Below, piece after piece: positions 8,516-15,230 of a DNA stretch of 49,338 nucleotides; position 1 is the first letter of the stretch, and the number at the start of each line of letters is the position of its first letter. The stretch is from Patescibacteria group bacterium (GTDB lineage: Bacteria; Patescibacteriota; Microgenomatia; Levybacterales; UBA12049), in the NCBI GenBank assembly GCA_038064195.1, contig JBBTTO010000002.1:25643-74980 (forward strand). The letters are read 5' to 3'. The position numbers and the translations under genes are program-made. The notes under the pieces were generated by a model. The model made no database searches and had not been told where the DNA came from. It worked only from the letters and a program-made list of their open reading frames with translations.

Positions 8516-11500
8516 ATGAAACAATTAAGAAAAATCTTTACCAAATCATCTCTTCCGATTCTCCTTCTTAGCATCCTCGAACTCACTATCTTCTTCACTA
8601 ACTACAAACCAAACACTTATTTAGTCGGCTGGGACAACGTCATGCCCGAGTTTAACCTGACGCTTAACTTTCAGCGGGCTATTGTCTCTCTCTGGCAGGA
8701 TTATCGTGGGCTGGGCTTAGTCGACGGACTGGCTCATAGTGCCAATTTACTCCATACCCTCTATATTGGCTTCCTCTCGCTATTCTTACCTGAGTCGCTG
8801 CTTCGCTATACCTACATTCACTTAACACATCTTTTAGGAGGTATCACCTTTTACTTCCTCATTAAATATCTTCTACAAAAATCCGAAGCACGAAACCCAA
8901 AGCACGAAACAATACCTAATGATCAAAATCACAAAACCCAAAGCACATCTCATTTAGTTCATTCAGATTTAGGAATTCTTTCGAATTTCGAGCTTCGATA
9001 TTCGAATTTAGTCAATTCAGCTGCCCTTCTGGGGGCGCTCTTTTATATGTTCAACATCGGCATCATCCAAATGTACTTTGCCCCGCTTGAGGTTTTTGCT
9101 ACTCACTTTGTCGCCTTACCACTCCTGGCACTAACCATCACGAGGGCACTCAGAGAGCCGACAAAAAAGCATTTTCTCCTGCTTTTCCTCGCCGGTTTTC
9201 TGGTCTCTCCCCAGGGCTTTGTCCCGACTGTTTTTATCGCTTTTCTGCTACTTTTTTTCTTCCTCCTACTTTTTCACATCCTGCAGACCAGGCAATGGAA
9301 GGTTGCTTTACTGACGGGTGTGACAGTTTTTCTGGCGAATGCTTTTTGGCTGATGCCGTATATGGTAAGTGCTATCAAGACTCCCGCGACTATCCAAAAT
9401 ACCCGCATCAATCAATTCGGCTCTGAAGAAATTTTCTATCGCAACAAAGCCCACGGAACACTGACGAGTACGCTCGGGCTTAACGGATTTATGATGAGCA
9501 CGATTGAATATGACCAGGATAAAAATAGTGATGTTTTTTTCATGCAAGCCTGGCGGAACTACGAGCAGACCATCTGGTACAAGCTCATCTATATCGGATT
9601 TTTAGCTATTGCCGGCTTTGGCATCATCCAGGTTTTCCGCAAAAAACAGTCTTCATTCTACCCGTATCTGGCTGCAAGCAGTGTGGCTTTTATCTTCCTG
9701 GCCAACAATACCGCAATGCTTGAGCAGCTCAATAGCCTTTTTCGGATGGCATTTCCGCTTTTTGGTGAGGCATTCCGCTTCCCTTTCACCAAATTCGTTA
9801 CGCTCTTTGCTTTCGGGCTCTCACTTTGTCTGAGTGTCGGACTACATGGACTTCTGCCGTATTTTAAAAAATACACTACTCCTGGTGCAGTCGCTATTGG
9901 CGGGTTGATTCTCTTACTCGCATTACCTGTTTTTCAGGGCAATTTCACCTCCCCTCTTCTCCGCTTGAAAATCCCCCAGGATTATTTTGAGCTCATGGAG
10001 TATTTTCAAACTATCGACCCCAACCAGCGCGTCGCGGTTCTGCCTGCGCATACTTTTTGGAACTGGCATTATCGTACCTGGGGACATCGCGGCTCAGGCT
10101 TTCTCTGGTACGGGATCCCCCAACCCATGCTTGAGCGAGCTTTTGATCCCTGGAGTCTCCGTAACGAGCAGTATTACAACGAGCTACAACAAGCCATCAA
10201 CAGTCAGGATCAAAACCTTTTGGAGGGTGTTATTCAAAAGTATGATCTCTCATATATATTTGTTGATCAATATGTCATTAACACCCTGTCCAGCCAGCCT
10301 ATTAACTACGACAGTATGGTACATTTTCTAGACAGCAGCCCCTCCCTACAAAATAAAAAGGCTTTCGGTAGGCTGCTTGTTTACCCGACAACAGCTCACC
10401 CTCCCTTTGTCTCCACCCTTTCTACATCAACGCCAAATACCCTCCAGTCTTTTTACACGCGAACTGATCACCAAGAAGCCATCTACGGCAGCTATGTCAC
10501 CGATCCCGGCAAAGCAAAAGCTACTATCTATCCTCTCTCATCACTCTTTAGCGAAAAACTCCAATCAGATCTCACATTTAGCGTTGAGGAAAAAGGGCAG
10601 GAACTCATAGTGACACCCAGACAGCAACAGCTCACTCTCGCCCCTGGACAGGAGCTGGTCGTTCCCAGTCTTTTTGCCAGTGAATTTCTCATCCCAGTAA
10701 CGATTTCTCCCCATCCCGGAGGGCTGAGTATTACACCTCTCTACCCGGATATTATTATTAATGACAAGCGTCTGAGTGTGCCTGTCCAACCGCTTTTTGT
10801 GCCGCTTCACACGATTCGCAATCCGACCGCGCTGATCCTGAATGACATCAGGCAGGCAGTTGCTCTGTCACCATCAGGAACTTCAACGTATCTCCTTGGC
10901 CGCTACCCTAATACCCTTGAAGTCAGCGATGGACATAACAGGGAGTCAGTCCTCCTTGACACCGCCACAATACCGAAAGAACCGATCACTCTCCCTGTCC
11001 AAGATCGTGAGATCTTCTCCTTTGCCTTCAGTGTCAAAGTATTTGCCAGTCCTTTCAGCGTGACTGATATTCTCGCCACGAGAGACTATACGCTGCAGGA
11101 AAATAAACAGCATCTCCAGCCTTTTACAGGCCCAACATCCGAAGCAACCGCTATCAGACTCGGCAATACGGTCAATTTACTGGCCCGAAGCGGGAATGAG
11201 GAGCTGGTATTCTATAAAGACAACCTCTTTCACCAGGCCTCCTATATCCTGCTCACCAAAGTTAACTATCAAAAAGGCCTGCCGCTCAATTTTTACCTAG
11301 ACAACCCCTATGAGCACCGAGCCGATCTGGAGACTGTCATGGCTAAAAAAGACACGACCAACATCCAGATCATCCCGCCGACCCAATCCGTCTTTAGCGG
11401 CTATGGCTTTCACTTTACTGTTAAGTCAGTGGGGACTGAGGAGGCACAATCAACAATTGAGGATCTTAGGCTCTATCCTTTCCCAAAGCACTTCATCGAA

Positions 11501-11911
11501 CAGACTGCCTTTACAGCCAAATACACAGTCCCGCTCAAGCCTGTATATACTAAAACAGCTGCTCATTACACCCGGAAAAATTCAGCACTCTTTGTAGCTT
11601 CTGCCAAAACAGATTCCTACCTTTCACTTTCTCAAGCGTATGATAGCGGCTGGCTCGCTTTTAGCTTTAAGGATCCTCCAAATATATTTCAGCAGTGGCT
11701 GCCGTTCCTGGGTGGACAGAAGCTACAAGACCATATACTTGTTAACAACTGGAATAATGGCTGGTACGTACCAAAAGACGCAGGCATACATGCAGTCATT
11801 CTCTACTGGCCAATCTACATACAGTATTTGGGGCAAATTATGACTATGTTAGCCCTAATTGTCATCATTATATTCGCCCTCCAACGAGACTTCACCAAGC
11901 ACCAAACTTGA
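8516..11911 (+). CDS. large polytopic membrane protein (1131 aa), possibly a glycan-processing/transfer enzyme
   Basis: Uninterrupted 1131-codon ORF. More than 10 hydrophobic helices in the N-terminal 480 aa and one at the C-terminus. Sits between two GT2 genes. Function inferred from context only. Confidence 0.85.
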   Translation: MKQLRKIFTKSSLPILLLSILELTIFFTNYKPNTYLVGWDNVMPEFNLTLNFQRAIVSLWQDYRGLGLVDGLAHSANLLHTLYIGFLSLFLPESLLRYTYIHLTHLLGGITFYFLIKYLLQKSEARNPKHETIPNDQNHKTQSTSHLVHSDLGILSNFELRYSNLVNSAALLGALFYMFNIGIIQMYFAPLEVFATHFVALPLLALTITRALREPTKKHFLLLFLAGFLVSPQGFVPTVFIAFLLLFFFLLLFHILQTRQWKVALLTGVTVFLANAFWLMPYMVSAIKTPATIQNTRINQFGSEEIFYRNKAHGTLTSTLGLNGFMMSTIEYDQDKNSDVFFMQAWRNYEQTIWYKLIYIGFLAIAGFGIIQVFRKKQSSFYPYLAASSVAFIFLANNTAMLEQLNSLFRMAFPLFGEAFRFPFTKFVTLFAFGLSLCLSVGLHGLLPYFKKYTTPGAVAIGGLILLLALPVFQGNFTSPLLRLKIPQDYFELMEYFQTIDPNQRVAVLPAHTFWNWHYRTWGHRGSGFLWYGIPQPMLERAFDPWSLRNEQYYNELQQAINSQDQNLLEGVIQKYDLSYIFVDQYVINTLSSQPINYDSMVHFLDSSPSLQNKKAFGRLLVYPTTAHPPFVSTLSTSTPNTLQSFYTRTDHQEAIYGSYVTDPGKAKATIYPLSSLFSEKLQSDLTFSVEEKGQELIVTPRQQQLTLAPGQELVVPSLFASEFLIPVTISPHPGGLSITPLYPDIIINDKRLSVPVQPLFVPLHTIRNPTALILNDIRQAVALSPSGTSTYLLGRYPNTLEVSDGHNRESVLLDTATIPKEPITLPVQDREIFSFAFSVKVFASPFSVTDILATRDYTLQENKQHLQPFTGPTSEATAIRLGNTVNLLARSGNEELVFYKDNLFHQASYILLTKVNYQKGLPLNFYLDNPYEHRADLETVMAKKDTTNIQIIPPTQSVFSGYGFHFTVKSVGTEEAQSTIEDLRLYPFPKHFIEQTAFTAKYTVPLKPVYTKTAAHYTRKNSALFVASAKTDSYLSLSQAYDSGWLAFSFKDPPNIFQQWLPFLGGQKLQDHILVNNWNNGWYVPKDAGIHAVILYWPIYIQYLGQIMTMLALIVIIIFALQRDFTKHQT
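8877..9009 (+). repeat. palindromic word element inserted in frame in the membrane protein gene
   Basis: Arms aaatccgaagcacgaaacccaaagcacgaaac and ctttcgaatttcgagcttcgatattcgaattt. The 17-mer 8879-8895 is identical to the reverse complement of 15214-15230. Confidence 0.6.
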
Positions 11912-12004
11912 CATCCTAAAGCCCCTATGATACTCTAGATCCTTACACATCGCAGTAACTGCCTCAGGACCATTTCTGCCCCATTAACTCCGCTCGAGAA
12001 TATC

Positions 12005-15094: not shown

Positions 15095-15103
15095 AGTCTT
15101 GAT

Positions 15104-15230
15104 AAATTCGAAATTCTAATATCGAAACTCGAAACAATATCAAAACTTAAATGTTAAATAATCAAACCTTTTGTATTTATAATTTAAGCATTAAATTTTT
15201 CTTCGGATTTCGAATTTCGTGCTTCGGATT
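15104..15230. repeat. palindromic word element spanning the radA stop codon
   Basis: Arms aaattcgaaattctaatatcgaaactcgaaac (15104-15135) and tttttcttcggatttcgaatttcgtgcttcggattt (15195-15230). The right arm encodes the radA C-terminus GKSEARNSKSEEKFNA. Confidence 0.6.

Follow-up and report, generated by a model that had tools for sequence, protein, structure and literature searches.

Here we report that two segments of a patescibacterial DNA stretch are diverged copies of one imperfect palindrome whose arms are made of tandem heptamers. The stretch, called the window here, comprises 49,338 nt of GenBank assembly GCA_038064195.1 (contig JBBTTO010000002.1, positions 25,643 to 74,980). One segment, copy A, lies in frame in the gene of a membrane glycosyltransferase, and the other, copy B, forms the 3' end of radA together with most of the spacer behind it. 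Very probably, both derive from a palindromic DNA repeat that is small, non-coding and non-autonomous, and its copies inside genes are tolerated at permissive places. A first-pass annotation made from the letters had proposed that one palindromic element is inserted in frame in both genes in the manner of the Rickettsia palindromic elements (RPEs). The features are as follows.

8516-11911, plus strand: gene of a GT-C-fold membrane glycosyltransferase (AftD-like), 1131 aa, host of copy A
8879-9010, plus strand: copy A, 132 nt, read in frame within the GT-C gene as 44 codons (residues 122-165, KSEARNPKHETIPNDQNHKTQSTSHLVHSDLGILSNFELRYSNL)
8879-8910, plus strand: 5' arm of copy A, heptamers AAATCCG AAGCACG AAACCCA AAGCACG AAAC
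8979-9010, plus strand: 3' arm of copy A, 4.4 heptamers of the TTTCGAA type (Tandem Repeats Finder (TRF) array 8979-9009)
14267-15094, minus strand: PIN-domain gene (yacL in the first-pass annotation), start codon 8 nt past the 3' end of copy B
15103-15231, minus strand: copy B, 129 nt, of which the first 48 nt supply the final 15 codons and the stop of radA and the other 81 nt fill most of the radA-PIN spacer
15196-15231, minus strand: 5' arm of copy B, AAATCCG AAGCACG AAATTCG AAATCCG AAG...
15103-15134, minus strand: 3' arm of copy B, TTCGAGT TTCGATA TTAGAAT TTCGAAT TT (TRF array of AAATTCG, 4.4 units, 15104-15134)
15184-15186, minus strand: radA stop codon TAA, contributed by the centre of copy B
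15184-16593, minus strand: radA/sms, 469 aa, host of copy B

The 17-mer AAATCCGAAGCACGAAA, from which the first-pass annotation started, is present at 8879-8895 on the plus strand, and its reverse complement is at 15215-15231, one base away from the 15214-15230 reported there; 0.02 matches are expected from shuffles of the window. The two copies are alike over their whole length of about 130 nt, at an identity of some 70-75%, with 90 of 129 aligned bases identical (8850-9040 on the plus strand against 15075-15260 on the minus strand). A repeat search paired 8879-8927 with 15183-15231 and 8960-9010 with 15103-15153. This pairing agrees with the TRF arrays at 8979-9009 and 15104-15134, so that the inverted partner arms proposed earlier were recovered. 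A hidden Markov model (HMM) of the family, built from copies of other genomes, matched 15101-15237 on the minus strand (E = 7e-27) and 8875-9012 on the plus strand (E = 5e-25) and nothing further in the window, and each copy scored higher on its expected strand. Between its arms copy A is A/T-rich. As single strands, the window copies fold better than shuffles (z = -2.2 to -3.8). KSEARN is read from both 17-mers; the peptides then differ (PKHETI... in A, SKSEEK... in B).

Copy A has the properties of an insertion. When the GT-C protein was aligned with its 60 best homologues, 59 of these lacked a counterpart of residues 122-165; at the insert site they carry a short variable loop, some of them with unrelated insertions. 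Among the 60, only the closest homologue (P0001, 62% identical) has the same segment, at the orthologous site, and the element stands at the orthologous place of its contig (L002). The L002 copy holds a nested 27-nt GC-rich palindrome, CCGCTTCGCCAGCGAAGCGAGGCGAG, which is also in frame (PASPAKRGE; L002 3313-3345). A small GC-rich palindrome, CCCTGCCTGCCGGCAGGCAGG, is nested in the copy of another locus as well (L056, near 5093-5209). The AlphaFold model of the GT-C protein was built with 67 homologues and has a mean predicted local distance difference test score (pLDDT) of 90.9 and a predicted template modelling score of 0.90. Its low-confidence stretch covers residues of about 127-160. Internally, pLDDT falls below 50 only at residues 130-132 and 137-151, both within the insert, and the 10-residue blocks over 121-160 have values of 73, 48, 44 and 65. 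Helix 93-126 continues into the first residues of the insert, and the final 14 or so residues of the insert begin helix 152-179. Foldseek related the model to mycobacterial AftD (E = 1e-19) and to oligosaccharyltransferases, i.e., to the GT-C fold. Judging from this model, copy A is predicted to be a disordered loop inserted in a membrane protein.

Copy B acts on the end of a protein. RadA orthologues that are 93% and 86% identical terminate with ...VLQSLGTK, whereas the window RadA terminates with ...VLQSLGKSEARNSKSEEKFNA (in a shorter view, ...SLGTK against ...SLGKSEARNSKSEEKFNA). Comparison of these ends indicates that copy B swapped 2 codons and a stop for 15 codons, KSEARNSKSEEKFNA, and the new TAA stop at 15184-15186; the first-pass annotation had credited the element with the stop and about 16 codons, close to this count. 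The segment is a C-terminal tail past the final conserved domain of RadA. Both segments are lineage-specific, as had been supposed, being absent from nearly all orthologues, and the comparison with distant orthologues did not refute their being insertions. Their locations, a disordered loop of the membrane protein in the AlphaFold model and the C-terminus of RadA, also fit the behaviour known from RPEs (PMC10969869). Elsewhere in radA, positions 16131-16167 hold a heptamer array of 5.3 GCTCTTT units (93% matches), which encodes KNKEQRAKSKE in a variable linker of RadA; if a single 7-nt unit were gained or lost there, a frameshift would follow, as in phase-variable genes.

The radA/PIN spacer has a history of its own. 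The closest relative (L001), whose radA and PIN DNA is 84-85% identical, has a different hairpin made of AATTTNN heptamers in the same spacer. In L002, where the flanking coding DNA is 66-72% identical, a TTCG-type copy is located just upstream of the PIN gene, and the contig stops inside that copy. In L123 (radA 69% identical), a copy at the same place again supplies a radA tail, KSEIRSTKSETNTKNETDTE, and L124 has a stretch, KSEVKSSA, that resembles a decayed remnant. Identity is 74-78% for orthologous copies and 60-70% for non-orthologous pairs. On this sequence comparison, the spacer would be either an old site with later replacement or a hot spot.

The closest homologues of both the GT-C protein and RadA are from Patescibacteria, labelled Levybacteria in most cases, and the host is a Levybacteria-like Patescibacterium of Hainich groundwater. 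The exact RadA protein including the tail is encoded on 14 contigs from independent samples, the longest being 1,075,823 nt from Hainich groundwater, and the window locus was found in groundwater runs of the years 2019 to 2025. At the density of the window, two copies in 49 kb, this 1.08-Mb contig would contain about 40.

The family was sought in one genome per GTDB species with the pattern CGAAGCACGA-N60-90-TTCGANNTTCGA, which gave at least 119 stretches; by a rough estimate that assumes uniform composition, about 30 matches would arise by chance. Because the pattern is exact and the census figures cover only the matches listed, family counts are lower bounds and are skewed to consensus-like copies. 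About 110 of the matches listed are clearly the same element and share far more than the scan pattern, the sequence common to the real copies being roughly AAATCCGAAGCACGAAATCCGAAACAAATTCAAATGACCAAAATTCAAAAC..GTTTTGAACATTTGAATTTTGGATTTGTTTCGAATTTCGATATTCGAATTTCGGATTT. The element is 102-162 nt long (median, 134 nt), begins with AAATCCGAA... and ends with ...TTCGGATTT. The outer part of its 5' half consists of NNNCGAA units and the inner part of NNNCAAA units, mirrored by TTTGNNN and TTCGNNN in the 3' half; since the inner units belong to the consensus, the element is a mirrored heptamer array throughout. Copies differ in how many units an arm contains. The arms are not exact complements: an AAGCACG unit occurs in the 5' arm at varying positions, and the place of the CGATATT unit in the 3' arm is fixed. 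This asymmetry also holds in copies that were not selected by the pattern (window copy B, L002 and L123). Across copies, only tiny open reading frames (ORFs) are called on the element. Hairpin potential is a property of the whole family (median z = -4.3). The TTCGAAT unit equals the T-loop heptamer of tRNA; a relation to tRNA was dropped as coincidence, the flanking stem bases being absent.

An HMM built from 114 copies gave 147 non-overlapping matches in 918 kb of fetched loci. All real matches listed are in metagenome-assembled genomes (MAGs), several of which hold multiple copies, and the taxon labels are those of the MAG records. Among the matches listed, the 120 copies of at least 50 bits are labelled Patescibacteria of many classes (33), Desulfobacterota (28), Planctomycetota (21), Verrucomicrobiota and allies (12), Gammaproteobacteria (8), Omnitrophota (4) and Armatimonadota (2), with single copies in Bacteroidia, Thermotogae, Firestonebacteria and Nanoarchaeia. 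We do not claim an archaeal host from the Nanoarchaeia record (L031), whose genes (SufC, MscS and a PhoR-type kinase) are non-diagnostic. None of the at least 119 stretches listed comes from a cyanobacterial record. Several host contigs are 100-790 kb long, and one is a 5.4-Mb chromosome. The element has a low GC content in every case (median, 0.31, with 0.48 in the loci); this content tracks that of the host (r = 0.74), and high-GC Verrucomicrobia have a variant with GACGAAT units; the tracking and this variant indicate long residence rather than contamination. In four groundwater metagenomes, evaluated at the contig level, the arms are found at 38-58 times contig depth and the flanks at 2-8 times, an excess of 5-10 times for the arms; assemblies break in the element, and contig ends fall there. 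Taken together, these records point to one very large family dispersed over many unrelated uncultivated bacterial phyla.

Most copies lie between genes. Of the 128 copies that reach 40 bits, 87 have intergenic positions, 25 contain the end of a long ORF (18 in the same orientation, 7 in the opposite one) and 16 are spanned by one (11 and 5, respectively); at least one spanning ORF is spurious, since the copy of L103 is upstream of the start of the enolase domain. Intergenic copies fit tightly, typically 0-20 nt from the upstream stop and 2-20 nt from the next start. The flanking genes are co-directional with the copy in 44 cases, co-directional in reverse in 22, convergent in 15 and divergent in 15. 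In-frame copies backed by Pfam domains were found in transketolase (L021), RNase HII (L105, profile positions 29/30), a RarA-like AAA protein (L068) and IspG (L069). In 51-71% of copies, an arm has no stop in any of its three frames, compared with 5% of random 35-mers of matched composition, and about half of the copies have at least one frame open from end to end in a given orientation. Eleven of the 21 ORFs reading into a copy use the KSEARN frame, among them all five that read through a whole copy in this frame (window copy A, L021, L068, L008 and L069).

The peptide is found in many predicted proteins. A profile made from the 44-aa segment of the window and ten tiny ORFs on other copies was compared with 1.84 billion cluster representatives; 4802 of them matched at E ≤ 1e-3, and 467 reached E ≤ 1e-10. 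Calls of 50-130 aa on the element itself make up most of the 150 best matches, of which 19 are at least 300 aa long. In the matches that we inspected, the peptide lies in a Ser/Thr kinase domain between HRDLKPANILL and DFG, and in a TIR-AAA protein. It recurs at one position in adenylation domains of nonribosomal peptide synthetases (NRPSs), after ...MLxDSxAxLL (A2) and before LAYIIYTSGSTG (A3); carriers include P0283, P0296, P0260, P0263, P0316, P0327, P0347 and P0383, and the domain is not longer than the Pfam model. The fixed A2-A3 place without lengthening suggests an old insertion that spread with the modules, or one permissive site that was reused. This is a position at which methyltransferase domains are inserted in interrupted adenylation domains. 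The peptide matches neither a Pfam family nor a PDB entry, and a word-indexed protein search with the consensus peptide returned 16 tiny ORFs only.

These results can be brought together as follows. The family may spread, or may once have spread, within genomes as DNA, and its copies would persist where harm is small, that is, in the short gaps between the genes of compact genomes and at permissive gene positions. A copy could survive inside a gene because heptamer arms rarely hold stops in any frame, and the KSEARN frame (AAA TCC GAA GCA CGA AAT) would often stay open from one end of the element to the other. With a length divisible by three, a copy would add a hydrophilic disordered loop and then a short hydrophobic stretch, whereas a copy landing at a gene end would exchange the native stop for a short tail. 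We infer that the copies originated by transposition-like insertion with the help of an enzyme acting in trans. The arms differ in a conserved way, which suggests that the ends or the strands are distinguished; this would fit an enzyme recognizing a single-strand hairpin; a Y1 transposase was tested as a candidate and was not supported.

Several observations weigh against a mobile repeat. A target-site duplication was not recognizable in the flanks of 93 copies, whose ends are A/T-rich and fuzzy and vary in unit number, and about 0.9 Mb of flanks held neither an autonomous parent nor a long element bounded by the arms. Clustering across 112 loci gave no shared neighbouring gene. Contigs, which cannot show rare variants, revealed no polymorphism between empty and filled sites within a population. 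The orthologous L002 copies have diverged about as much as the flanking genes, so that both insertions of the window seem to be old and not recent. The identity of copies is 0.67 between phyla and 0.69 within them, both values being raised alike by the 20 bases fixed in the scan pattern; such near-equality is unusual for a purely selfish miniature inverted-repeat transposable element (MITE) and could mean a constrained function. Finally, copies have the same orientation as the surrounding genes at a ratio of about 2:1. As for solo arms and long composite elements, only short stray arrays were found. A canonical copy compared by BLAST with PLSDB plasmids and GenBank phages gave no match, though the low-complexity filter may have masked one; a pattern scan of IMG/VR hit one contig among 2.9 million, so that no phage vehicle is apparent.

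A cis-acting function is the main rival to the mobile repeat. In this case the element would be a selected site, either an RNA hairpin that stabilizes or couples cistrons, with the upstream stop and the downstream start joined at its base, or a phased TTCG array bound by a protein, and the copies inside genes would be accidental. A core conserved across phyla, the arm asymmetry, the tight filling of stop-to-start gaps, the bias of 44:22 in co-directional gene pairs and the long residence indicated by the GC tracking all speak for it. On the other hand, RNA folding has no strand preference (61 copies fold better forward and 58 in reverse, with equal G-U counts), and RNAalifold found neither a consensus helix nor covariation in 78 copies; the lack of a consensus helix is explained by the register of the 5' arm, which shifts between copies. 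Scans of the two window copies detected no site resembling a promoter or a terminator, and neither copy contains an intrinsic terminator with a GC-rich stem followed by a T run. Rfam has no matching family: none was found for the window at the gathering threshold, and eight canonical loci searched by E-value gave only sub-threshold hairpins resembling miRNA precursors. Moreover, copies also occur between divergent and between convergent genes and inside ORFs. We consider a cis-acting site unlikely. The arm asymmetry also belongs to another proposal, namely that the element is a unit like REPINs, the hairpins formed by pairs of repetitive extragenic palindromes (REPs), and is moved in trans by a single-copy HUH/Y1 tyrosine transposase of the IS200/RAYT (REP-associated tyrosine transposase) type that reads a single-stranded hairpin, the arm mismatch marking the strand. 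The architecture of two inverted arms and a spacer in a hairpin of about 100 nt is that of REPINs (PMC3116915). Three of 112 loci (L033 6862-7509, L027 7058-7783 and L054 2-736) have an ORF within 8 kb of a copy that resembles Y1_Tnp and bears HxH and Y motifs, and relatives of these ORFs with 75-82% identity are common in Hainich and other groundwater metagenomes. However, none of these three genes is flanked by copies, the nearest copy being 0.8-6.5 kb away, a Y1 gene is missing from the window, and only 4 of 80 metagenome loci with Y1 relatives (420 kb) hold copies, seven in all, which is no enrichment. The element ends also lack the GTAG/CGTC head that PMC3733652 gives for RAYT-linked REPs, and the two window copies have opposite orientations on one replichore. 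A REPIN-like unit with such an enzyme is thus a doubtful candidate.

It is very improbable that the two segments are independent local expansions of similar heptamer microsatellites and not homologous. Tandem arrays of 7-9 nt are abundant in the genome, several of them inside genes, and the unit number per arm varies between copies, as such expansions would predict; this is already contradicted by the non-repetitive centre and the unit order, which are common to both copies and to more than 100 elsewhere, and by E-values of 1e-25 to 1e-27 for copies outside the HMM. An artefact of assembly or a chimera, which the breaking of assemblies in the element might suggest, deserves hardly any credence, given the 14 contigs from independent samples (one of 1.08 Mb), the recurrence of the locus over the years 2019-2025, the reading frames, which are kept, and the occurrence of the family in MAGs from many different assemblers. 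To return to the mobile repeat, it may be part of a larger picture, which is a serious possibility although we would not yet count on it: a family of non-coding palindromes of about 130 nt and about 67% identity would be shared by more than ten phyla of uncultivated groundwater and sediment bacteria, including the candidate phyla radiation (CPR), the nanobacteria of Omnitrophota and their likely neighbours or hosts (Desulfobacterota, Planctomycetota and Verrucomicrobiota). It would move between phyla without phage or plasmid, e.g., by episymbiotic contact, or be kept constant by a universal factor that reads phased TTCG heptamers. It would have written KSE[AI]RNPKSETN...FVSNFDIRISDF into thousands of proteins, including the A2-A3 position of NRPSs, and would be the first pan-phylum RPE-like element.

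The window contains other repeats. A second hairpin family has arms of octamer arrays (ATTGYTNN, 3-4 units, and NNARCAAT, 3-4 units) and occurs at 8446-8493, 33896-33948 and 43991-44083. One of its copies is just upstream of the GT-C gene, and another exactly fills the spacer between a recF-like gene and pyrH from stop to start, with a nested GC-rich palindrome, CCCTCTCCTTTGAGGAGAAGATTAGGGTGGGG, in the loop. It was also found at the orthologous place of L002 (2886-2960) and in other groundwater loci (L127-L134 and L146). At 36282-36385, a palindrome with nonamer arms (GGGACAGAT, 3.9 units, and CTTTTGACC, 2.6 units) is in frame in a 476-aa PHP-like ORF (35696-37126, minus strand), encodes KWDKRVKRDKRDKGNENTTPFGSSVPSVPSVPFVPK and is the third in-frame palindromic insert of the window. 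A GT4 gene (47363-48484, minus strand) has two direct arrays of CGCTTAG, 4.3 units each, at 47712-47741 and 47886-47915, which are 174 nt apart and encode LARRQALSAKRER and LAMRNAPSAKRSV. Spacer hairpins with inverted arms of 7-nt tandem arrays are located at 33379-33493, 46623-46701, 16608-16662 and 32787-32839, and a plain heptamer array at 18865-18893 in the 5S-23S spacer; each of these five spacer arrays has its own unit (AATTTNN, GTAGTAG/ACTACTT, AGTATAC, GCAAAGN and CTNTGCN).

The rRNA operon (18692-22679) consists of 5S (18692-18804), 23S (18988-22317) and tRNA-Ala (22606-22679), with no 16S in the window. The 23S gene is 3330 nt long against 2925 nt in the model, which indicates about 400 nt of insertion. 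A hairpin-like word of 27 nt with the core GGTCCGATGTTACATCGGAC is present in it at 19624-19650 and again at 5574-5600. The region of about 2000-8000 has a GC content of 0.54-0.56, compared with about 0.44 elsewhere, and many overlapping ORFs on both strands. It includes a 464-aa ORF without a Pfam match (5709-7103), neighbouring ORFs with DUF11 and PASTA domains, and paired 34-nt repeats at 5252/7345 and 5454/7474.

We found no description of the element in the full-text literature, searched also with its nucleotide and peptide strings, subscription journals being outside the coverage. Its heptamer-array architecture, its cross-phylum range and the scale of its in-frame use appear to be new. 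RPE-like in-frame insertion is extended to a CPR bacterium, in a family that crosses phyla and forms part of thousands of predicted proteins. If our explanation is true, thousands of 'hypothetical proteins' of 50-130 aa are calls on this repeat, contigs break at it, and C-terminal tails and loops of MAG proteins become recognizable as element-derived. The insertion of about 45 residues into essential enzymes would amount to a natural experiment that has been repeated. It would also become possible to ask how a gene-less sequence of 130 nt stays alike across phyla, and whether the element is a tracer of DNA exchange between episymbionts and their hosts.

The element resembles several known systems in part. 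Schoelmerich reportedly described in 2023 that the tandem repeats of Borgs create disordered protein regions. Nucleotide repeats in frame that add disordered segments are common to both; however, Borg repeats are perfect, direct and made in place and are not dispersed palindromes. The short tandemly repeated repetitive (STRR) sequences of cyanobacteria, said to have been described by Mazel in 1990 and Elhai in 2008, are heptanucleotide arrays in spacers with small dispersed repeats nested in them. Tandem heptamers are shared with STRR sequences, and GC-rich palindromes are nested in L002, L056 and window 43991-44083 as well; STRR hosts are heterocystous cyanobacteria and the units are different, whereas here NNNCGAA and TTCGNNN units build one discrete palindrome with a conserved centre. 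Classical MITEs, such as Correia/NEMIS, ERIC/IRU, BOX, RUP and QMITE1, are small, non-coding, bounded by imperfect terminal inverted repeats and intergenic in operons, with occasional in-frame copies (PMC10969869). The present element is likewise short and non-coding with terminal inverted repeats, but differs in its variable heptamer arms and cross-phylum range and in that no target-site duplication was recognizable at the A/T-rich ends of 93 copies and no parent insertion sequence was found in about 0.9 Mb of flanks. REPINs are non-autonomous, multi-copy and extragenic hairpins of about 100 nt (PMC3116915). Two inverted repeats and a spacer form a hairpin here too, without the GTAG/CGTC head or a RAYT gene flanked by copies, and with copies also inside genes. 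REPIN populations are lineage-specific, whereas the present family has a single sequence type across phyla.

In-frame insertion of small palindromic repeats is a textbook oddity of Rickettsia. RPEs are palindromic repeats of about 100-150 bp that are found in frame in unrelated housekeeping genes, where they encode a conserved peptide and are tolerated by the fold, and also between genes (PMC10969869). The element described here is similar in palindrome size (129-132 nt in the window and 102-162 nt in the family) and in its in-frame insertion with a conserved peptide. The comparison made in the first-pass annotation is thus apt for the insertion behaviour and does not extend to family identity: RPEs belong to Rickettsia, whereas this element, built of phased heptamers and mostly intergenic, occurs in a Patescibacterium, in other Patescibacteria and in many further phyla. 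It is not an RPE but behaves like one, and it is set apart by its host, its architecture and presumably its sequence.

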